A stretch of DNA of 64,000 nucleotides from contig CDPCPM010000114.1 of the NCBI GenBank assembly GCA_976551045.1, positions 24,056,001-24,120,000 of the forward strand. Direction: 5' to 3'. Shown here piece after piece: positions 130 to 61,309 of the stretch (position 1 is its first letter; each line of letters opens with the position of its first letter). The translations under genes and the position numbers were made by a program. This stretch comes from Glaucostegus cemiculus (lineage: Eukaryota). The notes below the pieces were generated by a model. That model was not told the DNA's origin. It did no database searches and saw nothing but the letters and a program-made list of their open reading frames with translations.

Positions 130-830
130 TTGCTACACAGGAATGCCAATTTATCCCACGTCTGTTGTTTGAAGAATAGTTACCCAACTTAATCCCACCT
201 TCCAGTACTTGGCTAGTGGACCAGCAGGTTACAGTTCTTCAAGTACACATTCAAGTACTGTTTAATGTGAGGGAAGGTCTCCGCCTCAACTATCCAAATG
301 GATGATACTAGACTTCAAGAACTACTCTTTGAGTATATTTGCCTGAGGCACTTGCAGATGCATAAGCCTTATACCAATTACTTTCATTCTATTCCCCACT
401 GTTTCTTTTTATTCCTCAGCATAGGAAAATGGGTTCTTCCAGATTATTTAGGCTCTTTATATTTTTATACACCTCAATTGTCTTCCTTCAGCCTCCTCTA
501 CTTCATGGAAAACAGTCCTATCAGGAAAACCTCAAGGCTTTCTATTTCTTTCTGGAAAACAGACCCAATCAGTTCCCTTCCACCACCACACTCTTCTGCC
601 TAGCAGAACTTGTGCTTGTCCTCAATAGTTTCCAACCCCAATCTCTCCAATCTTTCAACATAGCTACAGTTTTCCAGTCCTTGCAACGTCCTTATGAACC
701 CCCTCTGCAGTGTCTCCAATGCACTCTTATCTCTCCGGGAACATGGTGATCAGTGCTCTGCAGTACCCAAGCAGTGGTCTATCTAGCCTTGTATACATTT
801 CAACATGACTTTCTAGTTGTTATATGTTCT
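130..830 (-). mobile_element. Old degraded CR1 LINE 3' portion
   Basis: Resembles other CR1 3' ends in the window (e.g. ggtgatcagtgctctgcagtacccaagcagtggtct vs ggtgactaaaactgtacacagtattccaggtgtggcct near 3490). Confidence 0.55.
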
Positions 831-1401
831 CTCTGTTGTCGGTTAGGATTGAAAATGATGGACAGAGCCTCCACAGTTTCCTCTCTTGCTGTTTTTAACG
901 ATCTGTGATATGTTTCATCTGTACCTGGTAGTTCATTCACATTCACAGGTGCTATCTCTCAATATCTCCTTTGATATTTACCCCATCCACTGCTTCACAC
1001 TCTTCCTCCTCAACTACAACACACCATCATCCACTATTGTGATGACAGCTCATTGTCCTTTTTTCCAACACACACTACCTTTTGGTGCCAAATATCCTTT
1101 GCTATGCCACTGAAGCAGTTGTAAATTTTATTTGTCATTATATTTAAGGCCCTTTCTTTGCTTTTCTCATTTTCCTTTTAAATTTACGCATACACTTTAT
1201 ATACTCTTTATTTCCTGCAGTTATTGAGCTTTGTCTGACAAGCTTCCTTTTTGGTGCCATTTATCTACCACGTATTCATCCTATTTCTAACCTCTGTTTA
1301 GCATAGGGTGTAATTCAGAGATTACTATCTTGTGAGACACTGCTTAATTTATTTCCCAACTCCCTAAAGTCTGTTGGCAGGACTGCTTCCCTTTTACTGT
1401 C

Positions 1402-1500
1402 TAGTCCAGATGAATGGTCTCAACCCGAAACATTAACTGTCCATTTCCCTCCATACATGCTGCGTGACCCACTAAGTTCCTCCAGCACTTTGTGCATTGC
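1402..1500 (+). mobile_element. Penelope-derived short repeat with decayed hammerhead-like core
   Basis: tagtc-CAGATGA-atggtctcaaccc-GAAAC-ATT-aactg followed by the family block tgctgcgtgacccactaagttcctccagca. Confidence 0.65.
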
Positions 1501-1539
1501 TTTCTTTTACTAATGGATTTCGGCCACAATTTCTAGCTA

Positions 1540-1900: not shown

Positions 1901-2242
1901 GCTATTGATGCTCTGTTCACCTGGGGTTATCCAGGACATGGCAGCAATTTTGGAGTTCCCATGTGGCTCTGGATGATGGGCGTGCAGAGCCCCTTCATGC
2001 CTCTGTTTATTGTTAACATTAAGCAGAAGTGAAGCATCAGAACAGTGCCTCTTTCCCCACTTCACCAAAACCCCAAGTTTCATACTATGTAGAATGAGGA
2101 TTCATAGAGTAAAAGAGCACGAAACTGGCCATTTTGGCCAAACTCATCCATACTAACCAAGATGTCCATCTAAGCTAGTTCCATTGTCCATGTTTGTCCC
2201 ATATCCCTCTAAACCTTTCCTAACCATGTACTTATCCAAGCA

Positions 2243-3116
2243 TTGGTTTATTATTGTTACTTGTACCGAGTTACAGTGAAAAACTTGTCTTGCATACCGT
2301 TCGTACAGATTAATTCATCACACAGTGCATTGAGGTAGTACAGGTAAAAACAATAACAGAATACTGTGTAAAGTGTCACAGCTACAGGGGCGTGCTTTGC
2401 AGGTAGACAATAAGGTGCAAGGTCATAAGAAGGTAGATTGTGAACGTCAGGAGTCCATCTCATCATTATAAGGGAACCGTTTAATAGTCTTATCACAGTG
2501 CAATAGAAGCTGTCCTTGAGCCTGGTGGTATGTGCCCTCAGGCTGATGCCTGATGGGAGAAGAGAGAATGACCTGGATGACTGTGGTCATTGATTACATT
2601 GGCTGCTTCACCAAGGTATCTAGAGGTATAGACAGAGTCCATGGAGGGGAGGCTGGTTTCTGTGACGCACTGGGTTGTGCCCACAACTCTCTGCAGTTTC
2701 TTGCAGTCCTGGGCAGAGCAGTTGCCGTACCAAGCAATGATGCATCCAGATAGGATGCTTTCTGTGGTGCATTGATAAAAATTGGTGAGTGTCAAAGGGA
2801 GTCATGCCAAATTTTTTAGCCTCCTGAGGAAGTAGAGGTGCTGGTGAACATTCTTGGCCATGGTGTCTGTGGTTGGACCAGGAAGGCCTGTCTTGAACTT
2901 GAAGCTGTTGACCTCGGCACCATTGATATAAACAGGAGCATGTCCACCAGCTCCCTTCCTGAAGTCAATGACCAGCTCTTTTGTTTTGCTGACATTGAGG
3001 GAAAGGTTGTCTTCATGACACCATGTCACTAAGCTATCTCCTTCCTGTACTATGACTCATCGTTATTTGAGTTGTGGCCTGCCATGGTGGTATCATCTGC
3101 AAACTTGTAGATGGAT
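2243..3116 (-). mobile_element. Rex1/Babar LINE 3' fragment
   Basis: [31 protein letters not shown] and ESILSGCIIAWYGN motifs; aataataaaccaa tail. Confidence 0.9.
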
Positions 3117-3635
3117 TTTAAAATATCTTAAATGTTATTATTATACCTGCTCTACTACTTTCTCTGGCAGCTTGGTTCATTTACGCACCACAGTCTGCAT
3201 GAAGAAGTTGTCCCTCGGGTCCCTATTTCTTTCTCCTCTCACCTTAAACTTATGCCCTTGATTTTGGTTTCTTTTCACTGGGAAAAAGACAGTGTGCATT
3301 CACCCTATCTATTCGCCCCTCGATTTTATACACCTCTATAATGTCACCACTCAGGCTCCTATTTTTCAAGAAATAAAGTCCTAGCCTGCTCAACCTCTCC
3401 CTATAATTCAGGCTCTTGAGTCTTGGCAACATTCTTGTAAATTTTCTTTGCAGTCTTTATAGCTTAATGATGTCTTTCCTATAACAGGGTGACTAAAACT
3501 GTACACAGTATTCCAGGTGTGGCCTCACCAATGTCTTGTAGAACTGCAACATAATGTCCCTATTCCTAAACTCGATGTCATGACTGATGAAGGCTAGTGT
3601 ACCAAATGCCATCTTCAACCCCCTGTCTACCTGTG

Positions 3636-4683
3636 GTAAATTGGTTTATTATTGTCACATGTACTGAGGTACAGTTAAAAACTTTGTTTTACTTGCCATC
3701 CTTACAGATTATATCATTACAACGATTGAGGTAGTACAAGGGAAAACTATAATAGAATCCAGAATAAAGTGTTAGAGTTACAGAGAAAGTGCAGGCAGAC
3801 AACAAGGTGCAAGACCATAACAAGGTAGATTATGAGGTCAAGAGTCCATCTTATTGTACTGAAGACCATTCAATAGTTTTCTAACAATGGGATAGAGATA
3901 GAGGAAGTCCTTGAGCCTGGTGGAACGTGCTTTCAGGCTCTTGTATCTTCTGCCTGATGAGAGGGGGGAGAAGAGAGAATGTCCAGGGTGGGTGGGGTCT
4001 TTTATTATGTTGTCTGCTTTACCGAGGCAGCAATAAGTGTAGACAAGGGTCCATGCAGTGGATGCTGGTTTCTGTGATGTGCTGAGCTGTGTCCACAACT
4101 CTCTGCAGTCTTGGGGAGAGCAGTTGTCATGCCAGGCTATGATGCATCTGGAAAGGATGCTTTCCACGATGCATCGATTAAAAAAATTGGTGAGGGTCAA
4201 AGGGGACATGCCAAATTTCTTTAGCTTCCTGAGGAAGTAGAGGTGCAGCTGCACATTCTTGGCCATGGCATCTATGTGGTTGGACTAGGGCAGGCTATTG
4301 GTGATGTTAACTCCTGGAAACTTGAAACTCTCAACCCTCTCAACCTCAGCACTATTGATGTTAAATGGGAATGTGTGCACGCCCCACCCCCATCCCCCTT
4401 CCTGAAGTCAATGATCAGCTTTTTTTGTGTAGCTGACATTGCGGGAAAGGTTGTTTTCATGACACCATCCCACTAGGCTATCAATCTCCTTCCTGTACTC
4501 CAACTCATCATTATTTGAAATTCAGCCTACTTATGGTGGTTTCATCTGCAAACTTGTAGATGGATTTAGAGCAGAATCTGACCATGTTGTCATGAGTGTA
4601 TGGGTGTAAAGGGCTGAGTATGTAGCCTTGTGGGGCACCAGTGTTGAGGATAATCATGGCAGAGGTGTTGCTGCCTATACTTA
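3636..4683 (-). mobile_element. Rex1/Babar LINE 3' fragment
   Basis: IYKFAD RT motif near 4541-4562; LYFLRKLKKFG, ESILSRCIIAW and IIKDPTHPGHSLFSPLSSGRRY motifs; same tail. Confidence 0.9.
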
Positions 4684-5464
4684 TTGTGATGACACCACTT
4701 TTGAGGAACTATGTACTTGTACTTCTAGGTACCCCTGTTCCACAATGCTCCCCAGGGCTCTACCATTCACTGTATGAGTCCTACCCTGGTCCTTGGCCCA
4801 CTTACCCAGCTTATCAAGATCCTTCTGTAATTTTTGATAACTTTCTTCAGTGGAACTAGATTCCAAGTGACTTACTCCTCTGATACCGATTACTTTATAA
4901 ATAGCCTGGAATGTTTATTTCACCTGCACTGCACCAGAACTGCCAGTTTCTGAGCACAAGGTACCAAGTGTAAGCCAATCTTGTACTTTGTATTTTTCGT
5001 GTACAGATTCAATGGGACATGAAGAGTAAGTCCACACCAAATTGCAATTTGCATGACTGGAACTTCAAACAGGTCTTCCCTGGGTTACGACAGGGTTCTA
5101 TTTCTGTGAGCTATTCATAACCCAGACAGTTCACAAGTCAGAATTATTCCTGTAAACAGAGTCCCCACACAGCAGAAGATCCCCATGGCAGCTGGCAACC
5201 ATTCCACTAGTCTCCCAAATGCTTGTTTGTATGCACGGGCTGGACATAAGTTGGGCATTTGTAACCTGCGGAGGACCTGTAGTGTCCTACAGGGAGAAAG
5301 TTCTGGAGAAAATATCTGATCACAGCTTGTTAATTTTCTACATGATTGATCGTTCAGCCTCCACAGGTTGCAAGTATTTGTCCTTGCATCAATTAAATAG
5401 TGCTGCAGTTGCGTGCAATTTGTTTCCCCTATTTTAAATTTTCTCTCCATGTGCCTGACACCCT

Positions 5465-5693: not shown

Positions 5694-6552
5694 ACTCTCA
5701 TCATTGCCTTAAAATAGCTGGTGTATAATCATAGGTGGCTATACACAGTGATGCCTTGAATTTATTTACTTTACACTTTCATTGTGATAGCACTTTTTGC
5801 TAGCTGGAAAGTTTGCTTTTGGAAATAAGGTTTGCTAGTTATACTAAGTCCAAGCAATATGTTGGAGATGAGTTAGAGAAACTGATTTTCTGCACATCGA
5901 CAACAAAATCTACATACGACCCCAGGTTAGTCATTAATAGCTAGTGCTTAAGACTTTATATGAAGGATAATTAAATTGATTGTTGCAGGTTTAATTGTAC
6001 TTTTGTCCATATTTTTGAACAATTAATTACACTGCAGTTATAGCACCTATTATTATATTTAAACTCCTTACAGTAAAACTATATTGAATAAATGAATTTA
6101 CAGCATTGCACTTCCAACTATGGTTTTTTTCTCCATTTCTGTGATTATTTTTGGGGGGTCATTGTGGAGGAAAGGATTTCTGAAGTTTTGAAGTTTTAAT
6201 GGCTGCTCAGTGGGAGGTGGGGACGGGAGATTGGGAGAGGAAGGAAGAGAAGTTTGTGGCAAGATGACAGAGCAAAATAAAACTGCTACTGAAATAAACC
6301 ATAAAAGCTGGAGCAGAACTATTAAATCTGATTTTGTGCTTCCAAGTTAGAGTAATAAATGGTTGGTTGCTCACTCTGTCGTTTTTGACTGATCGATCTG
6401 ATAGGCAGTTGTAATTTGTCCCTGTGAAAACTCGTAGGTGGATTGAAACAAACAAGGAACTGGCATATTATTACTGAACTCTTAGAATGTTTCAGATGAG
6501 CAAGCAGGGCTCATTGCAGGGCCCTTTCACATTTGATAGCTGGCAGTATTTA

Positions 6553-6756
6553 TTGGTATTGGTTTATTATTGTCACCTGTACCGAGGTACAGTGAAAAGC
6601 TTGTCTTAGATAGGATGCTTTCTATGGTACATTGGTTAAAGTTGGTGAGAGTCAAAGGGGACAAACCAAATTTCTTTAGCCTCCTGAGGAAGTGGAGGCA
6701 CTGGTGAGCTCTCTTGGCCGTGGCATTTATGTGATTTGACCAGGACAGGCTGTTGT
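6553..6756 (-). mobile_element. Internally deleted Rex1 fragment
   Basis: Rex1 3' tail joined directly (~6607) to the ESIL/LRRLKKFG coding region. Confidence 0.8.
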
Positions 6757-7124
6757 CTTCCTCTCAGCCAGAATTTTTGGATTTCAGTTGACCTGCAGAG
6801 AGTGTAAGTGGAGACAGGGTAGGACTTGAATTTCCTCACTCTGCTCCCTCGTTCCTCTGGCTGCCATTGTGTAAAATCAGTTTTGGGTTGACCTTTGGAG
6901 AGGAATATACATGGTGGGAACTGCAGGAGCAGACATGACATAAAATTGGAAGTGGACATCCTCCCTACTCTTCTCATGGAATCACTTTGTTTTTTGCTCA
7001 TATGACAAGATGCAAGTATTGCTAGAAAGACCTGCATTTATTGCAAATGTGTAAATGAGGTGATGGTGAGTTGCTGCCTCAAGCTGTTGCAGTGTTTGGT
7101 GAAGGTATCTGCTCACTCAGTGGT

Positions 7125-10500: not shown

Positions 10501-12284
10501 ACCAAGCTCAGTTTTTAAGTGCTTCAAGATGACAGTTACATAAATTTAAAACTGGCTCCCTTTGCAAGGAACTGGTGTAGTCAAAATCAAAGCTGTGTAA
10601 TTAGTAGCTTTAAAAAAAAGAATAGAAGTTGCTTTTAACTGTGCAAGTTTTCCATGGCTGGTCTTTGTGCAAACTTTTTTGCCTTCAACTTGCTCGCTTT
10701 CTAAATGGATATGATGCTAGTTGCAGGTCTGGGTTCAGATAGTTATAGATGTGGGAGCAAAATAATGTACACCACATGGAAAGGGCAAGTTGTGATCAAG
10801 TGGCATCAAAAAAGAAAACACATGCTGCTTAAGTGAAGTCTGAAAGCAATGGGAATGTGACCCAGCCCCAGCTTGTGGAATGTGGTTTGGTGTCATGAAA
10901 GCAACTTTCCTGTCTTCAAATAGCAGCCAAGCAACTAATAACACAGTGATGCTTTAAAAGCCAGCTTATATATGATTGAAATTGAAGTTGGATGATTGTT
11001 GCTTGGGCAGCTAAATTTATTGGTGTAGATCATGTTGATAGGCAAATTATAATCCTGTCAATGTTCTGTTTTAATCTGTTGGATGCTCAGAGGCAATGCA
11101 ATGCTTTTGCACTTTCCACTTGCCCAAATCTAGTTCTTAAGAATTTTTTTCACTTTTGGGGTTAGCATTTTAATCATTTGTGAATGATTAAAAGCCTCTT
11201 TGCATTTTGGAATTGTTATATACTTTATGTAGGATTTATGGTCAATGCACATGAGTAAAGTGAAGATGATATGCCTAGAATCATGTATTCCTACTGAAAG
11301 CCATTTACCACTGGAGAGAGTTTGCCTTGCTGCCGGTGGTGCTTCACAACAGAGACATTTGGGGGGGGGGCGGGGGGTCCGTCCTAAAACCCTCCAGTTA
11401 TCATTTATGCTGGAAGGTGCAGCTTACATTGTTGAGGTGCCAAATGGTATTCAGTTATCAGTTAGATCATTAAAGTGGGTAATAACAGATTGATTTTGAG
11501 CAGGATTTAACTTCGACTATGACTGATGAAGTTTACTGGAATTTGTTTGGGACTAGCTATTGGTGATTGACCCCCTCACTACTATTTCTGTTAAAAAAAA
11601 ACACAAAAATAAGTTGCTTGCTTTCTGCTGAACAAAAGGCATATAAATGATTTTTATAGTGTCTAATGATCATTGGATCCAAATAAGACAGAAGAAATTT
11701 CTTCTGAAGACTTGGTATGTGTGCATGATAACAATGGAACAAAAATTAAAACAAATATTCATTATTTGTTTTTCCTTTGGTGTCAATGTATTAGACTATA
11801 CTACAGATTCACTGTTTCTCATGTCTTAAATGTGTCAGATGATTCTGGACAATGCAAGACGAACTTAAAATCAAACTTTCACAATGTAGTATGCTCAATT
11901 TATTTTGTGTTCCAAATCCATGTGAATGAAAACTGGCTAATCTCAATTTGCACACTGGTATCTTAGTTCAATCAAATCACAGTCACTAATGACCCCCCCC
12001 CCCCCCGCTCTCATTGTCCTCAGTCTCTCTACAACGTGTTGACATGATCGACTACATCACTTTCAGGCTGCTCCATTTCCATCTGAGCCAGACATTTTGG
12101 ATGGTGCTATTCTTGCCTGTTGAATCAGAACTGATGAATTTCCTGCAGTGGCTTCCCGCTATGCTCCAAGATGACTTTCTCTGAGGTCCCATTCAATCTA
12201 TTCTATTAGACCTTCCCTTATTTCCCATCAATGTGTTGCCCAACAGTAACATCATCCAAAACATGGCTGGTACTACATGTATAC

Positions 12285-13050
12285 TAGACACACGAGACTG
12301 CAAATGCTGGAATCCGGAGCAAAAAGACAAACTGCTGGAGGAACTCAGTGGGTCAGGCAGCATCTGTGGAGGCAAAGGGATAGTCAATATTTCTGGTTGA
12401 GACCAGATATCAGAACTGAGAATGTGAAGGGGAGAAAGCTAGCATAAAGAGGTGAGGGGGTGGAGTCAGGCAGCAAAAGCTGGATCCAGGTGAGGAGGGG
12501 TTAAAGGACAGATGAAGCACCCTCACTGTTCCTTTCTCTCTCCTTCTGAACCTCCTAAGTCTTCTCTCACACACCCTTCTTTCCAGGGCCCCTACCAGCC
12601 CTCTGTTACCCAGTTTCTATCCCCTTCAATACCTGGCTCCATCTGCCTATCACCCACATACTCAACGTGCTGGTCCCCTAAACCCTCACACTACTGTCCC
12701 ATCTGCCCGTCCGTTCCTTACCTGCTTCCACTCACCACCTTCCTTTCCTATCAGATTCCATAATCTGCAGCCCTTTGTTGTCTCCACCAATCACCTCCCA
12801 GCCTCTGCTGCTGTCTCCATCCTCCCCTCCCCACCTGACTCCATCTGTCCATTAATCCCTCCTCTCCTGGAGCCACCTATTGCTTGTCAGCTCTTGCCCC
12901 ACCCCTTCCCCTCGCCCTTTTGTATTGTCTATCTTCCCTTTAAACTCTGTCCTGATGTAGGCTCTCGACCTGAAATGTCGACCATCCCTTTACCCCCGTA
13001 GATACTGCCTAACCCATTAAGTTCCTCCAGCAGCTCTTTTTTTTTTTGCA
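12285..13050. mobile_element. Penelope-derived element with inverted arms, each carrying a decayed hammerhead-like core
   Basis: Left arm gctggaggaactcagtgggtcaggcagcatct... is the reverse complement of right arm ...gatactgcctaacccattaagttcctccagc. Cores at 12381-12418 (-) and ~12947-12984 (+). Confidence 0.75.
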
Positions 13051-13179
13051 CCACATGCATCCCAGTGCTTCAAAACTATCCCCTTCCTTGGTCCCTATCC
13101 CTTCATGCTGTTTGTTTGAAATCCAACCTTGCATGAATAAAAACAAATGTGGCAGAGTTCATAGTAAAGGTGGTGGAGG

Positions 13180-18000: not shown

Positions 18001-18229
18001 TTCACACCAATTCATGGTGATCCATAAAAAACATTTTAAAAACTGCAGATGCTGGAATTCTGAAATAAAAACTACCGGTAATGGTCAGTAGATAAAGCAT
18101 TATCTGTGAAAAGAGAAACGAGTAATATTTTGGTTAAAGCCCCTTCATCTTATTTGAGTAGCCTTCCCAGTCTCCTATGGAATGCCATCCAGTGCACTGG
18201 AAAGCACTAATGACAAGTGTCCAGATTTC

Positions 18230-19660: not shown

Positions 19661-20869
19661 GATCCCAGTGACTGAAAAGCCCGACTATTACACTTTTTTT
19701 TCATTTAGCCTCAGTTTTTGACTGGGCTCTTTACAGCCTTCTGTCCTTATAACTTTGCCTTAATGAAAGTTCCTATTTTCTCTCTCTCTAACAATGTGGG
19801 ATGATGGCTACCTATGTTTTCAGAAATAGGAGCAGCAAGTAGGTTAATGTTAGGGTGTTAGGACCGCCACCCTATCTTCCCCTCATGCATCAGTGGAATG
19901 AACCATTCCTTTTGGACCTTCTCCTTCCATAAACTTTTGGGCCATTCGAGCCTGCTTCACTTTGCCTGACTTTCACATTTTTAATTACATTTGTTATTTG
20001 TATTTCCTCTCTTCAAGGACTCTGTCTTGTAAATGATTTGATGTCACTCATTTTGTTTCCTGGGCCTGTCACTCCTATCCTTTAACCAATTTGCGAATCC
20101 CATCTTCGTATCTTTTTGTGTGGTCTTTCTGATTGCACCTGTTTCCCCTTTCCTCTCTGTTTCTTCTTCCTTAATTGCTATTTATCGATATATCCTTCGC
20201 TTCTGCTTGAAGATTTTATAACTTGAACCGCAATTGTGTTATATTTTATGCACTGATATTACCTGATTTGTTGAGTATCTCCCAGCATTTTGTGTTTCAG
20301 ATTCTCAGTATTATCAATTTGTTCTTGTTCCATTCTATTTAAAGCTGTACTAAAGCCTTTGAATGTGATTGGGCAGGTTTGGGACACTTACTGCAGAAAT
20401 TCTTCAGTACGTTTAAGCTTGATACTAACCAGATTACACGTGTTGGGCAAAAAAAGAGGACTTCAACCATGTACAATTGTTACATCAAATTAGTGAAAGC
20501 CTTTTCCTGAATAAATGTTTCACATTATTATGGCTTGCAAGAAATAAGCTTTTCTGTCAACTAATTCATTCTATTTGCCGTATTCAAATAATTGTCTTTC
20601 TTCTCCTCTGTAATTATTTGACCTTAAAATGATCTGCTTGTTTTAACCTAAACAAGTCATTTGATAGTGTGGTATTTATAGCCACTCAGAGGGCAAAAGA
20701 CAATGAGCATGAGGTGAATAAAATAAAAACCCTGCATCCTTTAGTGTGTTTTTTCACTTGTATATGAGGATACAGTTCTGGTTTATAAGTAATTTTGATC
20801 TGCCTATGGAAGGTTTTTTTCCCTAGGAATATGATGTGGAGGGATCCAAATTATAACATCAGTGTTGAT

Positions 20870-30774: not shown

Positions 30775-30985
30775 AAATAAGTTTTATTGTCACTTCTATA
30801 TACACATTCAACATGCATGGGAGCAAAATACCAAACTCCACAGATCAAGGTGCTGGTCACATTAAAAAAAAACGAGAGACACAAAGACAGAAAGACATTA
30901 ACGACTTTGGGACCACAAAAATTAAATAGAGACTCGAAAAACAGTCTTAGAGTGAGCGTACTGAGGCAGAAAAAAACCAAGTGAT
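30775..30985 (-). mobile_element. 3' end of an unclassified non-LTR element; related copies 43133-43320 (-) and 62270-62376 (+)
   Basis: Shared ttttattgtcact..tatatacac...ggagc.aaatac...ctccacag.tcaaggtgc; the copy at 62350-62376 ends in a (TGATTC)n tail after AATAAA. Confidence 0.6.
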
Positions 30986-31021
30986 AACAGGAAACTCTCT
31001 AACACCATCAATGAAAAAGAC

Positions 31022-32068
31022 TTGAATTCAAATCCCAATGATTGGGAAATTGAACTCCAGATTTCTATATCCATAGAGACTTGGAAGAAAATTCTTCATT
31101 TAGTTAATACATCCTCAATGTGTGCCAGACATTCATTGATACAGTTTAAAGTTGTGCACAGGGCCTATATGTCCAAAGATAAGCTAGCTCATTTTTATGA
31201 TCGTATAAACCCTATATGTGACAGATGTAAATCAAACGTGGCTTCTTTGTCACATATGTTCTGGTCTTGTCCTAATTTGGAAAAATATTGGAAAGACATT
31301 TTTAATATTATTTCAGATGTATTGAAGATCGATTTACAACCTCACCCTATTACTGCAATTTTTGGATTACCATGGATAAAGTCTGGCCATTTACCTGCTT
31401 CTGCTAATCGTATGATTGCTTTTGTTACATTGATGGCCAAACGAGCCATCCTGCTCAAATGGAAGGATCCAATACCCCCTACCACTTTTCAATGGTTCTC
31501 TCAAACTATTTCATGTCTTAATTTGGAAAAAATTAGGAGTGGTACTGTTGATTCTTCGCTTAAATTTGAAGATGTTTGGAGTCCATTTATTCAATACTTT
31601 CATACAATGTAGTCTCCCCTTCTATAACTTTTTTTTTAAATTTAGAGAAATGGAGCTGACGACATTATATTGTTCTATTTCTATTGAATTTTAGCCCAGT
31701 TTTTTTTTCTTCTTGTTTTGTTTTTTTTTTCCCTTTTATTTTAAATTCATTTTTGGTTTAATTTACTCTATATTATTATGATTTTTTAAATTGTTTTTTC
31801 TTAAAAAATTGTTTTGGGGTTTTTTTTGTTTTGTTTTTTCTTCTAATTATATAACAAATCTTTTTCTTTTTTATCTTTTATATTACACTTATGAACCGAG
31901 ATATTGTTGGAATTATTTCTTTTATATACATTATACTTTATTGCTTTTTTTATGATTATCTATGATTTATTTGATATTTATATAATACATGTGTAAACAT
32001 TGTTGTTATATATCTTAACCTATAATGATTTGTTATCAATAAAAAGATTGAAAAAGAAAAGAAAGAAA
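31022..32068 (+). mobile_element. 5'-truncated L1 LINE: ORF2 C-terminus with CCHC knuckle, T-rich 3'UTR, A-rich tail
   Basis: 196-codon open frame with QFKVVHRAY, CDRC..SLSHMFWSC and AKRAILLKWK; AATAAA 32038-32043; A-rich tail to 32068. Confidence 0.92.
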
Positions 32069-32442: not shown

Positions 32443-33042
32443 ATTGGAACTTGGAACAGAACAGCACAGGAGCAGGCCCTTCATCCCACCATGTTGTACC
32501 AAACTGATTAAACTAATGGCACCTAATCCCTTCTGCCTGCTCATGGTCTATATCCCTGTATTCTCTGCACATTCATGTGCCTATCTAAGAGCCTCTTACA
32601 CATCTCTATCGTATGTGCCTCCACTGCTACCCATTGGAAGCACATTCCAGGCACCCACCACATTCTCTGTGTAAAAAGATACTTGCCCCACACATCTCCT
32701 TTGAACTTGCCCCTTTTTGCCTTCAATGCATGCCCTCTATTATTAGACATTTTGACCCTGGGAAAATGTCAGGGTCTACTCTTTCTATGCCTCTCATAAT
32801 TTTATAAATTTCTATCAGGTCTTCTCTCAACCTCCGCTGCCCCAGAGAAAACAACCCTAGTTTGTCCAACCTCTCCTTATAGCTCATTCCCTCTAATCCA
32901 ACCTCTTCTGAACCCTCTCCATAGACTCCACATCCTTCCTACAATAGGGCAACCAGAACTAAATGCAATACTCCAGATGTAGCCTCACCAAAGTTTTATA
33001 AAGCTGCAACATAACTTCCAGACCCTTGAAATCAGTTCCTCA
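32443..33042 (-). mobile_element. CR1 3' fragment
   Basis: NNRGHALKAKRGKFKGDV...FTQR motif; acagcacaggagcaggccctt tail. Confidence 0.88.
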
Positions 33043-37289: not shown

Positions 37290-37855
37290 AAAAATAGAAA
37301 ATGCTGGAAATACTCAATCCTTGCAGAGAGAAGTGTTAACTTTTCAGGTTGATGACCTTTCATCAGAACACTTGCAATCAAAACGGGTTACAGAAATATC
37401 CTAGAGATGAGGTTCAGGAATGATTTAGTTTAATTATTACAATAATTAAGGATATTTTAGGAATTAGCCTGAGAACTACAGTTTTCCTTGGTATGGAAAT
37501 CTAAATCAATAGAGATAATTCCCTGATTAGTTTTAATATTAGAATTGAGATTGAAAAGAATTGAATAGCTGACAAGATGGCGAATTTGCCTCTGGATTGA
37601 ATTGCCAATTCTCATGCGCTTTGCAAATTATTTAAACACACCCTTTGGTGCAAATCTAGATGTATATCATATGCAGGAGTTTATTTTCGGCTGTCGGATA
37701 CTTACAAAACCAGCCAGTAGTATCTCTTCAGCAGGACATGTAGAGTCGGTCTACATTGACCCTTCATCAAACTGAAACATTGACTGTGTTCCCTCTTCAC
37801 AGATGCTACCCAACCCTCTGAGTGTTTCTAGTATTTTCTATTTTTCATCGGATTT
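37290..37855. mobile_element. Inverted pair of Penelope-derived repeat relics (37290-37370 minus; 37755-37855 plus)
   Basis: Minus core gtt-CTGATGA-aaggtcatcaacct-GAAA-agtt-aac at 37335-37369; plus copy GAAACATTGACTG...cacagatgct...ctgagtgtttctagtatttt. Confidence 0.6.
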
Positions 37856-38049
37856 GTAATGGGCGCTATTTTTAGATTTTAGTTCGTTCTGAAACTGTTA
37901 TTTTCAATCTATTGGGATTGTGTTATCCTGTACTTTACAACGATACGGAGGCTCCATGTCGTTTTAAGAGTGCAGTACAGGATAACAGTCACATTGGTTT
38001 CATTTTCCTTCATTATTCCCCATGCAGTTTATTTTCATGCAAGCCGTAA

Positions 38050-38510
38050 GTAGTCATGTTATATAATAAGCAGAGGGAACTGAGTTCTAAGCCATCAGTT
38101 TATTGCAACCTGTGCCCTACCTGCGCCTGGACCTGACACTGGGCGTTCCTGTGCGTGTAACCTTGTATGTGGAAATTATGGAAATCGGGCCCGCTGAACC
38201 TGTGCGGTTGCGGTTTTGTACGTATATATTATGCTAATGAAGATCAGGTGAGCCAATGGGCGGCGCAGCTGGTGCCGTTCTTTGCATGTATTATGCTGAT
38301 GAGCGTGCCGTGGGGTTTTGTGGAGGAGCGGCGGCGGGCGCTGTTTGTCACCATCACAGGGTTCTTTGTGGAGCGGTGGAGGTGGCTCTCCAGGTTCACT
38401 AGCACTCCCAGACAAAATCCACACTAACCCTCACTTCACTCATTCTGCGGCGACCGGGCAGTCACAGGCAGCAAAGCACCGTTTCTCCAGCATCTTTCTT
38501 TTGAAATAGC
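38050..38510 (+). promoter_or_regulatory. CpG-rich proximal promoter and 5'UTR of the TSC22D1 short isoform
   Basis: CpG retained relative to the CpG-poor flanks; CCAAT at 38253-38257; GC-rich stretches; directly upstream of ATG 38511. Confidence 0.7.
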
Positions 38511-38635
38511 ATGAATGCTGAATATTATAAGTCACTGGCGATGGAGCTTGGGGTTTACCAGCTGAGGAATTTCTCGATTTCATTCCTTTCCTCTTTGCTT
38601 GGAACAGAAAACGCCTCCGTGAAATTAGACAGTAG
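38511..38635 (+). CDS. TSC22D1: TSC22 domain family member 1, short-isoform first coding exon ([41 protein letters not shown])
   Basis: Manual translation from ATG 38511 closely matches the short TSC-22 N-terminus (human ...[32 protein letters not shown]). Ends in phase 2 at AG/GTAAAT (GT at 38636). Confidence 0.93.
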
Positions 38636-39306
38636 GTAAATGTCGGTGGTTGTATTTTATTTTGGAGCAGTGCAAGGTCGCTTCTGTTTGAGGCAGTCAG
38701 ATACAGTACAGCAAATGCCTCTTGTATTGCAACAGTCTGCGATGCTAAAGGCGGTGACAGCTTCTTCGAAGTCTTGGGCTCTTTGTGGGAAGGGGGTGCG
38801 GGGGGAGGGTGGATTTCTGGGGAAAGCGAGTTTGTTTTTTCCATGTTTGCTGGGTCCCGGGAGCTCCTGCTTGAATATGTGCCCCTGGAAATATTGTCGA
38901 GCAATGCAGGGAAAAAAATGGCTGGCGTCGTCTCACCGGCTTGTTATTTTGCCGCATTACAGCGGGGGACCCCGGAGTCAGCAAAAAGTGAAGATAACGG
39001 CGTGTTTTTTTGTTCAAAGCTCGACCCTACACATGGAGCAAAATGGGTTTAAATTCTTAAAAACAGAATTGCTGGGGTCGGGACGTTGGAGACCGCCGTG
39101 TTGCATACCTTGCAAGCTGCTCGCACGGGAGGGGGAGGAGTGAATATAATGCATCAGATATCACAAAAACAAGGCTATTATCAGGTTTCAGCTCTACATT
39201 AGATCTTGGCAGGGGCTTGATTTGGCTGTTATTCGCCTGTTTGTTTTTTTTTCGAGCATCAGTCGGATTGCTGCCTTAATCTTGTTTTCTTGTGTTTCTT
39301 TTGCAG

Positions 39307-39358
39307 TTCTTCTGGTGCCAGTGTGGTAGCCATAGACAACAAGATCGAGCAAGCCATG
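39307..39358 (+). CDS. TSC22D1: TSC22D1 shared 52-nt exon (SSSGASVVAIDNKIEQAM, first half of TSC box)
   Basis: Polypyrimidine tract and TTGCAG acceptor ending at 39306; donor ATG/GTAAGT at 39359. Phase fits both neighbouring exons; canonical TSC-box peptide VAIDNKIEQAM. Confidence 0.96.
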
Positions 39359-39869
39359 GTAAGTGGAGCCAAATATTTATGTGGTTATGGGGAAGGGTGT
39401 TATTTATTAGTCGTCCAGTAATGTCACGAAAGGGGGAAACAAGTCGATTCTTTGATGAGCCCTTGGGTGTAGGAGTTGTGGGAGGGGGAGAAAGAGAGAG
39501 GGCAATGTTTTAGTGGGACTATGCCAAGGAAGCAGGACCAGGAATAGAAATAATTCCCAAATCACAGGTGTAATAAGGCAGCTCTGGCATTCGCTGTACA
39601 GTGTGTTTAATGTTTCCACCGCTAGTCCTCCGTGTCAGAGGACATTTATTGTTCATTCGCTTGCGAATCAATGCAAAGATGCTCAAGGTGAACCAGAGAC
39701 AGCGTCTTACTTGTCTGCATCTGTCTTGTGCAGCGTGACCTCGGGCAGAAATTATCTCTGCAGGGCGAGGCTAAATGTTCGTGTTTATAATTCGAAGTGA
39801 TTTAAAATCCTATTTCACGTTACTGAAACGCCAGCAGATCGAGTAAATATTTTCCCTGCTTGCATATCT

Positions 39870-40620
39870 CAAATGTCAAGCTTATTTTGTCGTGCTCGTT
39901 CCGGGGTGCCCTGGAGGTCTGGGGATGGCATGGATTTACAGCCCAACCTGGCAGTGGGTGAGAGAATGTGTGGTATAGGACACTGGGCTACTAGTGTCTG
40001 CAACAGCAGTGCAGTGGGCAGCAGTCGGGGCCTCTTGTATATTGCGGCTGTAGGAGGCGGTAGAGGGTTGAGTGCCCCGCGGGTGAGAAATGTGCCAGAA
40101 CTTGCTAGAAACATCGAGGCTAACGGACGGGTGGAGATCGGGGTCACTCTGCTCCTCTCTCCACGCATGCTGCTCGGTCCACTGGGGATCTGTTGATCCA
40201 CTGTGATTGGACTGCGCGGAGGTGGCCGGCTCTGGATCAGTGTCCAACGGCCAGCCCGCCGCACGGTGGAGCCGGGGCCTGAGCCCCCGGAGGCTGGAGT
40301 GGGTGTAGAGGCCGAGCCCCAGTGCGTCTCCTCCGCCGCTTGCACCGATCTTCCGGCTGCTGCCAGACGATCGCAAACCTTAAACCCGGGCTATAAATAA
40401 CTCCGCCACCGATTGGCCGGGGCCGATGACGTGGCGCAGTCTGTGGGTTTCGGTGACGTCAGCAGTTGTTAGGAGCGGGAGACGACGGAAGTGGGAAGGA
40501 GGGGGCGGCGCCAAGCGTGGACGCCCCGCGACTGCCGCCGGAGCCAAATGGTAGCTGCTGGTAGCGCAGCCGCCCGACCCGCGCAGGAGCTCCTCCATGC
40601 AATGAACGCATTCCCCATGT
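39870..40620. promoter_or_regulatory. Intronic CpG island with promoter-type motif cluster (MEF2/TATA-like, CCAAT, CRE/UPRE, CRE, ETS, GC box)
   Basis: CTATAAATAA 40391-40400; ATTGG 40412-40416; TGACGTGG 40427-40434; TGACGTCA 40454-40461; CGGAAGTG 40486-40493; GGAGGGGGCGG 40498-40508; high CpG density. Confidence 0.7.
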
Positions 40621-40898
40621 CCCAAATATTTAATGCATTTGGCACAAAAGTTCAACGGCCTTCGGCTACTATGTATTTAAAATTCTGGCAAGCACTGCTA
40701 AACTTTCTGCATTCAGCAGACATGAATGATTGATGCATAAAGCAGCGCTTGTCATCAGTAGTAATCTCTAATACGGTAAAACGGACCACGGCACTTCAAA
40801 TGAGAGGAGTTATTGAGCAGAATTTGACATAAGGACAGATATCCTCGTGGTTAGTTAAGGAGGCAGGTTTTGTCGTAAGGTAGGACTTCCAGAGATCA

Positions 40899-40961
40899 AC
40901 TGAAGCCGCAACTAGTGTCCCCCACCTGTCCACTAGTTGCGGCTTCAGTGTCCCCCACCTG
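40899..40961. repeat. Perfect 19-bp inverted repeat plus 15-bp direct repeat
   Basis: actgaagccgcaactagtg 40899-40917 and cactagttgcggcttcagt 40931-40949; agtgtcccccacctg at 40914-40928 and 40947-40961. Confidence 0.95.
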
Positions 40962-41294
40962 AAGCAATGCAAACCAGAAAGAGAATTTTTAAACTAATAC
41001 TGGATCAGAAACCGATGTAACTGAGTGAGCAGAAGGATGATGAGTAGTTAAGTGGAGTGCTGTGGAAGTTAGGATATGGTCAGTCAGATTTTGGCTGTGT
41101 TGTTTACAAGTGTAGACTAGGCAGGATAGTGTTGGAGTTAGAGGTAAGCAGCACAGGCATGGGTTTCAGCAGTGGATAAGCTGAAGTAAGCAATGCTGTG
41201 CAGGTAGAGAACTTGGTTACTGAGGGAATGGAGTTCAGAATCTCAGCTCAGCTTTCAATAGAAGATCAATAATGCCTCGACCATGGCAAGAGAT

Positions 41295-42110
41295 AATTGT
41301 ACAGGGGTCTTCTGGCTCACATCCACGCCAGCCAAAAGTGGAGCCTTGTTGGTTTCTCCCACTTCTCGTCTCTTGATCAATATCTATGTTGGTTACCTTC
41401 TCGTGTGCATCAGTTTTAAATGTGATAGGTTTCTGTGTCTACCTTCCTTTTGGACTCTGTCATTCTGGCGAAAATTATTTTCCTTTGATCTTGCTATCTC
41501 ATACCATAAATCCATTTCCTCTAGTATTGACATTAATTTCAAGGAAAATAGGTCCAGTGTACACCCAGTGTGATTTAGCATAATTTTACACACGCAGTTA
41601 AATCTTCCCTCAGCCTCCTTTTTGTCCCAAAGAAAACAACAAGTCTCCACTCATAACTAAACTTCTGCAGCCTGGCAGCATTTCTCCTAATCTTTACGCT
41701 CGCTTTAGTGCTACCACAACCATCCTCTAGTGTGGTGAACAGAACTGTACACTCAACTCTAGTTGTAGCTTAACTGGCATTTAATACTGCCCCAGCGTGA
41801 CTTCCCTACTCTTATAATCTGTGCCAGTCAAGGCAAGCATCACAAATGCCGCCTTAACGCCTTATCTAGCCTGCTGCCTTTTGTCATCGGTGGATGTGCG
41901 CTCCAAGATCCTGCTGTTCCTCCAAACTGTTCAATACTCTACCATGCATTGTGCATTTTCTCACCTTGTTTCACACTTGTGGATTAGATTCCATTTGCCA
42001 GTTTACGTGCATATAACCAGTCCATTGGTATCTTACTGCAGTTTATAAGTTTCTTCCTTGCTGTCAAGCACTATTTTGGTGCCTGAGTAAAATATTCTTA
42101 ACCATTGGGT
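41295..42110 (-). mobile_element. Old CR1 3' fragment in TSC22D1 intron 2
   Basis: ccctcagcctcctt..aaagaaaacaac..ctggcagcatt..tggtgaacagaactgtacac blocks shared with other CR1 copies. Confidence 0.7.
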
Positions 42111-45270: not shown

Positions 45271-46529
45271 TCGAATTCAGTGTTGCTTTTAACTATAAAC
45301 TGCAGCATTATGTGGGATGGGATTGTTTGAAAGAAATCGTATTATTCAGAACAGATTTCTGTTCCATTTATCACCATCCTAGCAGCTGAATCCCAAGTTA
45401 TGATGGCCACTAATGCTCGGCAATGAGAATCAGTACCATAAAACAAACAAATCCTCAGTTGGGGGCTTTACCATTTTATGTTCTTTTTTTGTTAGAGAAG
45501 CAAACCTATTTTAAGCCAAAATTGTACAGACTTAGAGTATTTCTTTTCACAAGTCACAGTAATTTCTGTGCAGTCAAGTCTGTTACTTTCTACATGGCTG
45601 ATGAAGGTTGTGATTCTCTGCTTCATCTATACAGCTGGGGTTCTCGCAACCTGGCCATTCAAAAATGAGATGGACTTGATAATTGGCATTGAGTTTGATC
45701 TTGTTATAAATCAGTATAACTTAAGCAGTTGCTCCAAATTCTGATTTTACATCTTTAACTCGACCTTTTCCTTCCCAACCATCATCTTTTATTTAAGATG
45801 TAGGATGAGCAAGATTTGACTTGAACAGCTTACCTCAGTAGTACATGCCTGTGGATGTGATGACAGTAGCTGTAGGGAGCTACAGTGTTTGAATTCTCAC
45901 AGCTATTCACAATACAATCTGTTTCTGTCCATGAAGGGTTTTACAAATTGCCATGTTAAACATCTTTATTGCTACAAATGCTTTGCCTCATCTCCACTGA
46001 ACCTCTAAGGTGCTTGTGCACCCATCATATTGTAATAATTGTAAAAAATATTTAAAACATACTGCAAGTTGGCTACTAAAATAAAAACAGAAAATGCTGG
46101 AAATAGTTTAGGCCATATCTTTTGTAAGAGAAACAGAGTTAACATTTCAGACAGAAGACCTGTTGTCTGCTGACTGAGTTGGCTACTAATTTCTTTAAAA
46201 CTCTGTGCCCCGAACTTAGTCTTTGCAACTTGTTGAAACTCTGAAAAATTAGAAACAATGTGAATGAATTTAAGACCAAAAATTCAACATTTCTATGGTA
46301 TAACACTTGGTAAAGATCATCAGATCCTAAAGCATCTGCTGGAGTTGATAATATCCACAAAAATTGTCAGTTTTTTTTTGGAGGGGGGGGAGTATTTTCT
46401 GAAACTTAATATGCAGCCCTTCCTACATTAGTTTTGATAATGTCTCGGTTTAAATAGAAACTTGTGCAAATGATAAAATGTACTCAGTCCTGCATTCACT
46501 GTTAATCAAGGTGGCATTACATGGACCAG

Positions 46530-46672
46530 GAAAAAAATACTGGAAATAGCAGGTTGATGACCTTTCATTAGAAAGGTGAAACATTAACTATTTCTTCACA
46601 AAAGCTGCCTGACCCGCTGAGTAGTTCCAGCATTTTCTATTTCAGATTTCCAACATCTGCAAGGTTTTTTGC
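46530..46672. mobile_element. Internally collapsed inverted Penelope-derived repeat (another relic at ~46075-46160)
   Basis: ctggaaata..aggttgatgacctttcat joined to gaaacattaac..gctgcctgacccgctgagtagttccagcatttt..cagatttccaacatctgca. Confidence 0.6.
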
Positions 46673-46931: not shown

Positions 46932-49703
46932 TTATAGAGTCTTACAGCACAGAAACAGGCCTTTGGCCCAACTGGTCCACGCTGACCAAGATTCTCATCT
47001 AAGCTACTCCTATTTACCCACATTTGGCCCAGTTTCCTATCCGTATACCTGCCTCAACAACTTCCTCTGGCAGCTCATTCCATATACTGACCACCCTCTG
47101 GGTGAAGAGGTTGCCCCTCCAGGTTCCTATTAAATCTCTCCCCTCTCACCCTAAACCTATGCCCTCCAGTTCTTGAGTCCCTAACCCTGGTGAAAAAGAC
47201 TGTGTGCATTCACCCCATCTATGTCCCTCATGATTTTATACACCTCTATAATATCACCCCTCATTCTCCTACATTGCAATAAAAGTCCCAACCTCTCTCT
47301 ATAACTCAGTCCCTCAAGCCCCAGCAACACCCACGTAAATCTCCTTTGCACTCTTCCCAGCTTAATGGCATCTTTCCTAGAGCAAGGTGACCAAAACTGA
47401 ACACAATATTCCAAATGTGGCCTCACCAACATCTTGTACAACTGTAAAATAACATCCCAACTTCTATACTCAATGCCCTGACTGATGAAGCACACCTCCT
47501 CCACCCAGTGTACCTGCAATACCACTTTCAGGGAACCATGTACTTGAATTCCAAGGTCCCTTTGTTCTACAACACTCCCCAGGGTCCTATCATTTGTTTT
47601 CCCAAAATGCAAAACCTTGCACTTACCTGAATTAAACTTCATTTGCTATTCCTTAGCCCACTTACCCAGCTGCTCAAGATCCCTCTGTAAATCTGATGAC
47701 CATCTTCACTGTCTATAACACCTATTTTAGTGTCATCTGCAAACTTGCTAACCATGCCTTGCACATTCCCATCCAAATCACTGAGCTAGATGACAAATTA
47801 TGGGCCCATCACTGACCCCTGGGGAACACTGCTAGTCATGAGCCTCCAGTCTGAAAAACAACCCTCCATTATCACCCTCTGCTTCTTACCATCAAGCCAA
47901 CTGTGTATCCAATTAGCCAGCTCTCCCTGAATCCCATGCAATCTAACTTTCCATCACAACCTACTACACAGAACCTTATAAAAGACCTTACTGAACTCCA
48001 CATAGAATATGTATAAAGCCCTGTTCTCATCAACCTTCTTGGTTACTTCTTCAAAAAAAAATTTGTGATCCCCATGTACAAAGCTATGCTGACTATCCCC
48101 AATCAACCAACCCCTTTCTTTCCAAATGGTCATATCTCATTCCTCAGAATTCCCACTAGTAACTTACCTACCACAGATGTTAAGCTTACTGGTCTATAGT
48201 TCCCAGTTCTTTCTTTGCAGCCCTTCTTAAAGAGGCAACATTAGCCACCCTCCAGTCTTCCAGCATTTTACCCATGGCTAACAATAATGCATAAATCTCA
48301 GACAGAGCTCCTGCAATTTATTTTCTAGCTTCCCACATTGTTCTTGGATATACTTGATCAAGCCCTGGAGATATATTTACCTTCATATGTTTTAAGACAT
48401 TCAGTCTCTTCCCCATCCACCCCCCCCCCCCCAGCTGTTCTGTAGACTATCCCCAAGACATCTCTATGAACTATCTGAAGTTCTGAAGTCTTCATGTCCT
48501 TCATGGTAAAAACAGAAGAAATATTCATTGACCACCTCTCCCATATCCTGCAGCTACACACAAAAGGCACGATAGCATAGCGGTTAGCACAGCGCTGTTA
48601 CAGCGCCAGTGATCGGGATTCGATTCCTGTCGTTGACTGTAAGGAGTTTGTATGTTCTCCTGTGTCTGTGTAGGTTTCCTCCAGGTGCTCCAGTTTCCTC
48701 CCACATTCTAAAGACGTACAGGTAGGTTAATTTGGGGGTTTAAAATGGGCGGCACAGACTTGTTGGGCTGAAAGGGCCTGTTACCACGCTGTAAGTAAAT
48801 AAATAAATACAATTTCCACTTTGGTCTTTGAGGGGCCCTATTTTATTCCTGGTTACTCTTTATCCCTTAATGTACACAAGATCTCTTTGAATTCTCCTTA
48901 ATCTTCTCTGCTAAAGCTATCTCATGCCTCATTTTGCCCTTCTCTTCCTTACATGTACACATGCATCGTCTATACTGCTCCAGGGATTCACTTGATTCCA
49001 CCTGCCTGTATCTGACCCATGCTGCCTCCTTTTTCCTGACTAGAGTCTTGCTATCCCTTGTCATCCAGGGTTCTCTACTCCTGCCAGCTTTTTCCTTCAC
49101 TTTAACAGGAATATGCAGACCCTGGACATTATGTCTCATTCCTAAGAGCCTCCCACTTGCCAGATGACCCTTTGCCTGCAAGCAACCTACTCCAATCAAC
49201 TCTTGCAACTTCCTATCTAATACCATCAAAATTTGCCTTGCTCCAATTTAGAACTTTGTTGACCAGATCTGTGTCTTTCCATAACTAATTTAAAACTATA
49301 CAACTATGGTCACTGATCTCAAAGTTCACCTCAACTGATACCTCAGTCACTTGCCCCAAGAGTAGGTCAAGCTTTGCCCTCTCCCTAGTAGGGTCTTCTA
49401 TATATTGAAACTTTCCTGAACACACTTACTAAATTCCACCCCATCTAAGCCCTTGGCACAATGGCAGACCCAGTCAATATTAGGAAAGTTAAGATCCTCT
49501 ACTAGGACAGCCCTATTATTCTTGCAACTCTCTGCAATCTCCCGTAGCTTTGTTCTTCTAATTCCCGTTTGCTACTGGGGGGCATGTACTACAATCCCAA
49601 CAAGGTGACCATCCCATTTTTATTTCTCAGTTCCACCTTTCAAGCCTCACTGGACAATCCCTCAGTAATTTCATCTCCCACTACTACTGTGATGTTCTCC
49701 TTT
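46932..49703 (-). mobile_element. Long CR1 LINE fragment (endonuclease end through RT to 3' tail), inactivated
   Basis: MKFNSGKCKVLHFG, LYKMLVRPHLEYCVQFWSP and REPWMTRD motifs; VTLLGLY..P endonuclease remnant near 49580-49610; many frameshifts. Confidence 0.92.
48566..48809 (+). mobile_element. Short V-SINE nested in CR1
   Basis: A-box tagcatagcgg, B-box gattcgattcc (48617-48627), V-domain ggagtttgtatgttctcc..ggtttcctccaggtgctccagtttcctcccaca, (TAAA)n tail. Confidence 0.88.
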
Positions 49704-50137: not shown

Positions 50138-51402
50138 ATACAGAACATGGGACAGTGCAGCACAGGAACAGGCCCTTCAACCCACAATGTCTGCACCCAA
50201 CATATTGCCAAATTAAATTAATTCTCTTCTGTCAGTACATGATTCATATCCCTCCATTCCCTGCATATCCATGTCTCTAACAGCTTCTTAAACACCACTG
50301 TTGTATCTGCTTCCACCACTCCTCCCGGCAGTGCATTCCAGGCACCCACCACTCTCAGTTTAAAAAGAAACTTGCCTCACATATCTCCTTTAAACTTTCC
50401 CCCTCTCATCTTAAATGCATGTCCTCTAATATTTGATATTTTTACACTGGGAGAAAGATTCTGACTATATTCATCTCTCATAATCTTATCAACCTTTATC
50501 AGGTCTCCCCTCAGCCTCTGACACTCCAGAGAAAACAACCCAAGTTTGTCCAACTTCTCCTTGTACCTAATGCCCTCCAATCTAGGCAGCATCCTGGTGA
50601 ACCTCCTCGTCACCCTCTCCACAGCCTCCACGTCCTTCCTATAATGGGGTGATCAGAATTGCACACAGTACTCCAAGTGAGGTCTAACTAAAAGTTTTAA
50701 GGAGCTGCAACACAACTTCCTGATTCTTATACTCAATGCCCTGACCAATGACATCAAGCATGTCAAATGCCTTCTTTACCACCCTATCTACTTGTGTGGC
50801 CACTTTCACCCAGTATGGACTTTGACTACAAGATCCCTCTGAACATCAATGCTGTTCAGGGTCATGCCATTAACTATATACTGTCCCCTTACATTAGACC
50901 TCCCAAAGTGCAACACTTCACACTTGTTTGGATTAAACTCCATACGCCATTTCTCCATCCATATCCCACTGCATCTTTGATCGTCCTCTACTCTGTCCAC
51001 AACTCCACCAACCTTTGTGTCATCTGCAAACTTTTCATTTTCATCCAAGTCCTTATATTTATTTGGCCCCAGTACTGATCCCTGTGGGATACCACTGGTC
51101 ACAAACTTCCAACCAGAACAACACTACCTTCGACCACTACCCTCTGTCTTCCATGGGCAAGCCAATCCTGAATCCAAACTACCAAGTCACTGTGGATCCC
51201 AAGCATCTTAATCTTCTGGATGAGCCTACCATGAGGGACCTTGTCAAATGCCCTACTAAAATCCATATAGACAACATCCACTGTCCTACCCTACACTCAC
51301 CAATCACCTTCTCAAATAACTCAATCAAGTTGGTAAGACATGACCTGCCCTGCACAAATCTATGCTGACTGTCCCTAATCAGGCCATGTTTCTCCAAATG
51401 CC
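50138..51402 (-). mobile_element. CR1 RT and 3' fragment
   Basis: QHRFVQGRSCLTNL, DVVYMDFSRAFDKVPHGRL, SGIPQGSVLGP, KFADDTK and MEFNPNKCEVLHFG motifs. Confidence 0.93.
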
Positions 51403-61115: not shown

Positions 61116-61309
61116 TGAGAGTACAATGTTGTAAGAAATCTGCTTGTCTTATAGTTTATACCTTTGTTGGTTTGCAATGGATCAGTGTCGAGTGAACTTT
61201 GAGTTTGTGTTGCTGGCAGCTGTACCTGCCAATTCACAATGAACACTGACAAGTCATGGTGTGAAGTGAAGATTATGCCAACCACCAACATTTCAAACTA
61301 ATGTCCTCT

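Follow-up and report, generated by a model that had tools for sequence, protein, structure and literature searches.

A fold-back repeat unit that very probably joins two 3′ ends of a Penelope-like retrotransposon, each with a decayed minimal hammerhead

The fold-back unit and related repeats in the window

The window (the whole stretch of 64,000 nucleotides that was analysed) contains a fold-back unit at 12286–13049, which consists of two repeat copies on opposite strands and is itself devoid of coding sequence. The left arm (12286–12517, minus strand) is a 5′-truncated copy comprising ∼100 nt of 3′-UTR, a hammerhead remnant, the pLTR core, and a tail of 30–40 nt; it matches the repeat profile at 12289–12418 (model positions 3–133) and is 75% alike to ORF-linked copies of subfamily B2 (see below) up to 12517. 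The right arm (12519–13049, plus strand) is likewise a 5′-truncated B2 copy, with a nearly whole C/T-rich 3′-UTR, a hammerhead remnant, and the pLTR core, and matches the copies at loci L052, L058, L060, and L062 at 75–77% over 470–540 nt (model positions 3–106). It begins just after the position of the stop codon in ORF-linked sister copies, whereas the left arm covers just the 3′-terminal 230 nt of this element. The tail is present on the left arm (to model position 133) and absent from the right arm, which ends at model position 106. Between 12321–12420 and 12945–13044 the arms are 77% complementary, and over a longer span of about 216 nt they still match in inverted orientation at 73%; the unit folds to −268 kcal/mol, compared with −174 kcal/mol for 10 shuffles. 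The unit is flanked by a possible, decayed target-site duplication (12272–12285 and 13050–13063) that agrees at 10 of 14 letters. As the same agreement was reached by 107 of 441 shuffled pairings, it lies within the control range and is suggestive only.

Both arms carry the decayed remnant of a minimal hammerhead, at 12381–12418(−) and 12947–12984(+). On the left, G8, position 9, the extra base, and positions 10.1, 11.1, 15.2, 16.2, and 17 are changed; on the right, helix II and positions 11.1 and 15.2 are changed and the GUC is kept. With T at position 9 and the further core changes, neither arm has A9 or an intact core.

The original prediction had quoted seven copies of a shared core from this window. 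Those at 1402(+), 12381(−), and 12947(+) read as quoted, those at 37335(−), 37770(+), 57216(−), and 62605(+) are matches of the profile, and the seven are a mix of subfamilies rather than a single lineage. The iterated profile found 11 copies in the window and none in the reversed window. Beside the two arms, these are a solo pLTR copy of subfamily A2 with a broken core (U4 changed to A; 1383–1501(+)), an old copy of subfamily D (18041–18149(−)), a weak fragment without the hammerhead part (20251–20300(+), 18 bits), a second old D copy with an internal deletion (37290–37369(−)), a copy truncated inside helix II (37767–37845(+), by profile match), an old decayed copy (46073–46162(−), also by profile match), and a copy of subfamily B1 with C at position 9, a tail, and a little 3′-UTR (57138–57289(−)). 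The remaining two belong to small fold-back units. That at 46530–46670 consists of a plus-strand copy matched by the profile (46578–46670) and, just before it, a deleted minus-strand arm read by eye, the boundary of which is approximate. In that at 62563–62708, an inverted tail (about 62563–62594), also read by eye, is followed by a plus-strand copy truncated in helix II, taken from the profile. The earlier statement that no copy in the window is intact is nearly true: the copy at 37290–37369(−) alone keeps CUGANGA, GAAA, and UH, but has lost the 15.2–16.2 pair. An Rfam scan of the window at E values up to 10 gave no match to a hammerhead family and five chance matches.

In a 464-kb sample (the window plus 40 stretches of 10 kb at round coordinates or adjoining the window), the profile gave 102 matches, and none in the same DNA reversed. 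CUGANGA, GAAA, and UH were kept together in 4 of 48 sampled copies spanning the motif, and the 15.2–16.2 pair in addition in only one. Most copies of the repeat are unpaired and lack coding DNA. Genome-wide, the 28-nt core of the original prediction has 231 exact matches and a degenerate pattern for a fully intact hammerhead 1,433, with none in the respective controls. Re-scanning the 36 stretches at round coordinates (360 kb) gave 78 matches, which extrapolates to roughly 600,000 pLTR ends in 2.85 Gb; as the sampled stretches came from large contigs, this figure is an order of magnitude.

The window also contains many LINE-type fragments (2242–4760, 6550–6760, 32520–33040, 47060–47600, 50320–50880, 54530–54780, and 59780–61120), with matches to RVT_1 at 59780–60457(+) (E = 8e-22) and to ALKBH8_N at 3841–4284(−). 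An open frame of 215 aa at 30965–31612(+) matches zf-RVT (E = 3e-5) and is the 3′ end of another non-LTR retroelement. At 38001–42000, GC content rises to 48–50% and several open frames overlap, the three of which that were scanned had no Pfam match; this is possibly a CpG island or promoter region.

The parent Penelope-like element

Using a 94-aa piece of reverse transcriptase (RT) as the query, 150 of 12,772 candidates were scored. The RT-anchored loci that were read numbered 45 or, minus the query and two duplicates, 42 distinct ones. In 36 of these 42, the pLTR repeat was found 900–1,500 nt downstream of the RT on the same strand; on the opposite strand it was found in none. The link to Penelope-like elements (PLEs) drawn in the original prediction is borne out. 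The hammerhead motif sits in the pLTR, 250–445 nt after the stop of the frame encoding RT and GIY-YIG endonuclease, and the frames upstream of intact copies carry motifs of both domains. At L091, L099, and L101, the RT motif YIDD, a CX4CXXC linker, and a GIY-YIG domain with CxxC were seen. Flanking coding sequence, which had been named as the thing to look for, thus exists in sister copies, although none of the 45 loci has an intact ORF. Sequence like that of the right arm continues into GIY-YIG coding sequence at L052, L058, L060, and L062, and at L058 also into RT. Pfam domains matched these decayed frames weakly (RVT_1, E = 0.003; GIY-YIG, E = 0.01–0.05; all below the cut-offs). The frames align at 43–63% with proteins of ∼900 aa that bear PF00078, PF26215, and PF01541, the closest named ones being from rays and sharks, consistent with the elasmobranch host that had been thought likely. 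Pieced together from decayed copies, the element has a single ORF with RT and, at its C-terminus, a GIY-YIG domain bearing CCHH.

The most complete layout, at L104, consists of a pLTR piece, an ORF from its ATG, a 3′-UTR, and a second pLTR. The locus matches residues 1–868 of protein P0013 (904 aa), beginning about 40 nt after the 5′ pLTR piece, and is the only one with a pLTR on both sides of the ORF; its 5′ pLTR is partial, being cut off after the hammerhead. The upstream pLTRs of L067, L083, L101, and L107 were rejected as 5′ pLTRs, since none of the four continues into the beginning of the ORF. All of the subfamilies A, B, C, and D include copies with adjoining coding sequence. Because of the linkage to RT and GIY-YIG, the linker, and the layout of L104, the repeat is assigned as the pLTR of an endonuclease-positive PLE. 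A CX2-5CxxC linker between RT and endonuclease is present in L101, P0008, P0013, P0015, and P0036. This linker, the C-terminal GIY-YIG domain, and the ORF length of about 900 aa are shared with Neptune and Nematis (PMC8557442), and by these marks in the predicted protein the element is of Neptune/Nematis type, the two clades not being told apart. An isolated RT coding fragment of the same element lies in the window at 517–632(+) (77–85% DNA identity to L092, L104, and L107; tblastn E = 3e-8); it measures ∼110 nt and precedes the solo pLTR copy (1383–1501) by 750 nt, with which it may form a single deleted insertion.

In ORF-linked copies (for example L192:1070–1351(−) and L032:1142–1497(+)), the C/T-rich 3′-UTR is bounded by GT, at the ORF stop, and by YAG, at helix I. 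Of 39 copies, 28 have the GT near the stop and 31 have the YAG preceding helix I; the stop codon and helix I offer other explanations for the two motifs. An intron of Penelope from D. virilis also ends at helix I (PMC4209133). A candidate intron spanning this interval had no corresponding splice joint among the joints listed (15 of 19 and 15 of 92) from RNA runs that possibly stem from another species, their reads being mostly less than 95% alike. The reads of these runs (X4–X6) cover both strands of the repeat family and reveal no position at which many molecules begin or end, ordinary RNA-seq being a poor test of cleavage. At L181:860–1800 and L192:1015–1420, they differ by A>G and T>C at many places and also by G>A at many; as there are thousands of diverged copies, editing is inseparable from copy differences in these reads.

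Inverted pairs, short copies, and the insertion mechanism

The arrangement of the focal unit recurs in the family. In the 464-kb sample, 19 pairs of copies lie on opposite strands no more than 1 kb apart, and in 17 of them the 3′ ends face outward (p = 0.0007); 12 further neighbouring pairs within 1 kb are on the same strand. Exactly one arm carries the tail in 57 of 78 outward pairs, and in 22 of 75 at least 12 of 14 flanking letters agree, compared with 1 of 441 shuffled pairings, the duplications being 13–15 nt long. Insertions of endonuclease-positive PLEs show the same 5′ truncation, head-to-head inverted copy, tail of 30–40 nt at one end, and duplication (Craig et al, 2021, PMC8557442; PMC3846280). 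Nothing essential differs from these published units; the density of pLTR copies is high here. The unit at 12286–13049 is very probably a head-to-head pair of 5′-truncated 3′ ends, derived from a Penelope-like retrotransposon of high copy number and likely deposited in one insertion, each with a decayed and likely inactive hammerhead.

The original prediction had put forward, as a possibility, a separate, non-autonomous, MITE-like ribozyme retroelement, which was not supported. Inverted arms of 100–216 nt at both ends would suit a MITE-like DNA element that a transposase mobilises by its terminal inverted repeats. However, arm length varies between units, most copies are unpaired, the duplications measure 13–15 nt, and only one arm bears the tail. 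The notion is contradicted by the sequence between the arms, which is the 3′-UTR of the PLE and runs into the GIY-YIG/RT frame in sister copies; an element of this kind is scarcely credible here.

A second alternative, namely a distinct short element (similar to a SINE or retrozyme) that starts at helix I and is moved in trans by the Penelope protein, would give many short copies. Coding DNA is absent from most copies, and the 5′ ends fall at the start of helix I (−5 to +8) in 6 of 26 copies of subfamilies A, B, and C in the 464-kb sample, five of them exactly at +4, and in 33 of 94 pattern-picked copies. Moreover, hammerhead-bearing retrozymes derived from pLTRs have been reported, one chondrichthyan included (Li et al, 2026, bioRxiv 10.64898/2026.07.22.740005). 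These non-LTR retrozymes resemble the present copies in being pLTR-derived and non-coding and in carrying a type I hammerhead, but form head-to-tail tandem arrays, whereas the copies here are dispersed or inverted. Tandem units had been named as something to look for, but no head-to-tail array of hammerhead units exists in the window, and identity with retrozymes was rejected on this ground. The other 20 of the 26 copies have different starting points, of which 18 lie upstream and grade continuously into the UTR, and the focal unit itself carries 430 nt of UTR. The cluster at helix I is equally explained by copying from internal start sites to the normal 5′ end of a PLE transcript. Taken together, a separate short element is unlikely. 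Under the preferred reading as ordinary PLE 3′ ends, the copies that start at helix I likely arose when copying reached the 5′ terminus of an RNA beginning at TCAGTCC, which we take to be an initiator-like sequence. The 5′-end cluster at the A of TCAGTCC would then make the first base of helix I the point at which transcription starts. The cleavage site was considered as another source of 5′ ends and rejected, only 3 of 63 lying there, without a cluster.

From published work on other PLEs, the following course of events may be envisaged. The protein of the element would nick the target DNA via its GIY-YIG domain, and reverse transcription would begin at either of two internal sites of the RNA, giving ends with or without the tail. 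Copying that halts early would leave the copy 5′-truncated, and a second, inverted copy joined before repair would complete the head-to-head unit. In PAc, a Poseidon element of Anolis, the hammerhead likewise lies in the pLTR and two 3′ ends define the tail; its hammerhead is protein-assisted and was dispensable for insertion in vitro (Frangieh et al, 2024, PMC11167929). The two elements differ in the ORF start, which lies inside the hammerhead in PAc, whereas in L104 about 160 nt separate the beginning of helix I from the ATG downstream.

The hammerhead core and its possible activity

When the copies were clustered by their sequence downstream of the hammerhead motif, six subfamilies were resolved. 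The youngest, C (6 copies), has a non-CpG divergence of 5%, an A at position 7, and a GUU site, and the oldest, D (20 copies), has a non-CpG divergence of 20%. The majorities of A and A2 equal the ancestor reconstructed in the original prediction, although the focal unit descends from B2, with C at position 9 and a helix I of 3 bp. The attribution of many copy differences to CpG decay was supported; the same decay obscures the pairing of helix II and blurs positions 11.1 and 16.2 of D.

The predicted geometry of a minimal type I hammerhead was recovered in the majorities of A, A2, and C, which have helices I and II, an extra base between 9 and 10.1, G10.1-C11.1, and a palindromic 15.2–16.2. 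The core CUGANGA, GAAA, and UH is present in the majorities of A, A2, C, and D, in keeping with the consensus that had been expected, but B lacks A9. Minimal hammerheads are known from the pLTRs of metazoan PLEs, among them the fish elements Xena, Poseidon, and Neptune (Cervera and De la Pena, 2014, PMC4209133). With these, the present family shares the palindromic 15.2–16.2 without further helix III, the short helix I, the extra base between 9 and 10.1, and G10.1-C11.1, and also the prevalence of solo copies with some opposite-strand pairs 100–700 bp apart and several families per genome (PMC4209133). Helix II differs, having 4–5 bp here and 7–8 bp in Schistosoma (PMC4209133). The host differs as well, being likely an elasmobranch, whereas two supplement files of that study hold no shark or skate term. 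The head-to-head layout, the minimal hammerhead, and the extra base after position 9 have all already been published for PLEs.

Ten positions (C3, U4, G5, A6, G8, G12, A13, A14, A15.1, and U16.1) are invariant across the six majorities, and variation is found at N7, loop II, position 17, and outer helix I, that is, at the places a hammerhead leaves free. This pattern fits selection acting on the master copies, as far as six related sequences and one compensatory event can indicate. The latter is the 2.1-1.1 pair of helix I, which is switched from C-G to U-A in D (TA in 15 and CG in none of 33 copies). Of the compensatory pairing that had been sought, this single change stands; in helix II, including 10.1-11.1, candidate covariation was set aside because it is inseparable from CpG decay. 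In 93 copies, core columns decayed slightly less than those downstream (68 of 901, 7.5%, versus 358 of 3,593, 10.0%; p = 0.026), which could be selection on the copies, which had to show a recognisable hammerhead end to be counted.

Alternatively, the likeness to a hammerhead may be a chance feature of the pLTR palindrome, which never worked as a ribozyme in this family. In line with this notion, B1 and B2 spread although their position 9 is C and their helix I has 3 bp. For the majorities of A and B, moreover, the fold of lowest energy is one in which the core is paired with the GUC side; it lies 2.2 kcal/mol below the hammerhead shape. It would also agree with the scarcity of 5′ ends at the cut site and with covariation amounting to one event. 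Such a coincidence is improbable, however, given the ten unchanging core positions, the restriction of variation to permissive places, the switched pair in D, and the presence of all marks of published PLE minimal hammerheads (PMC4209133). Judged from these alignments, the hammerhead reading holds at the level of the family, and the copies in the window are likely inactive.

Subfamilies B1 and B2 deserve separate consideration. C at position 9 was found in 27 of 32 B1 and 16 of 22 B2 copies, none of which had been picked by the hammerhead pattern, and helix I has 3 bp. In the hammerhead, A9 pairs with G12, and changing A9 strongly slows cleavage. B1 and B2 make up 10 of 48 sampled copies, and the fact that about a fifth of the copies belong to B hints that cleavage is not needed for spreading. 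It is conceivable, though rather doubtful, that B1 and B2 (amplified from masters with CUGAUGC and a 3-bp helix I; perhaps 100,000 copies in the genome) represent either massive spread with a dead ribozyme or an undescribed active variant in which C9 is combined with the extra A. Were the ribozyme dead, B1 and B2 would constitute a natural test that cleavage is dispensable. Neither a C9 hammerhead core nor this repeat family was found reported in the literature covered (outside subscription journals, figures, Repbase, and Dfam). Among the matches listed, CUGAUGC had no occurrence, and cleavage with A9C and G12 was not found in that literature; the available parts of PMC3088659 contain neither “A9C” nor “position 9,” and those of PMC4209133 do not mention the C at position 9 typical of B1 and B2. 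Where hammerhead, Penelope, and shark were searched together, the only match to “shark” refers to the shape of the animal's head.

Monomers of PLE minimal hammerheads did not cleave, and dimer cleavage was low (PMC4209133). In the parent RNA of the present family, cleavage 3′ of GUC or GUU would be expected only where two pLTRs on the same strand dimerise or where the protein of the element assists. Two such pLTRs could pair their ACGU palindromes into a helix III, the duplex having a predicted energy of −3.1 kcal/mol (−4.1 kcal/mol for subfamily C). Inverted arms, which are the normal layout of a Penelope insertion, cannot form a same-strand dimer; as the motifs of the focal unit lie on opposite strands, read-through RNA would fold into one long hairpin instead.

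The focal locus, being decayed retrotransposon debris, matters little by itself. The family, by contrast, constitutes a large natural series of Penelope hammerheads spanning the divergence from C to D, and supplies test sequences for the role of PLE hammerheads: subfamily A has GUC, C has GUU, and B lacks A9, and each of the three has spread widely. It also accounts for many MITE-looking fold-back hairpins in shark and ray genomes.

Two further observations concern sequences related to the family. The ray proteins P0002, P0003, and P0112, which are named as isoforms of host genes, consist largely of the RT of this PLE, which suggests exonised or mis-annotated PLE pieces. Four copies with intact cores (L022–L025) lie on one contig and share at least 0.75–1.5 kb of upstream DNA at 76–99% identity, without a match to PLE protein; this shared DNA is a local duplication or captured flank.
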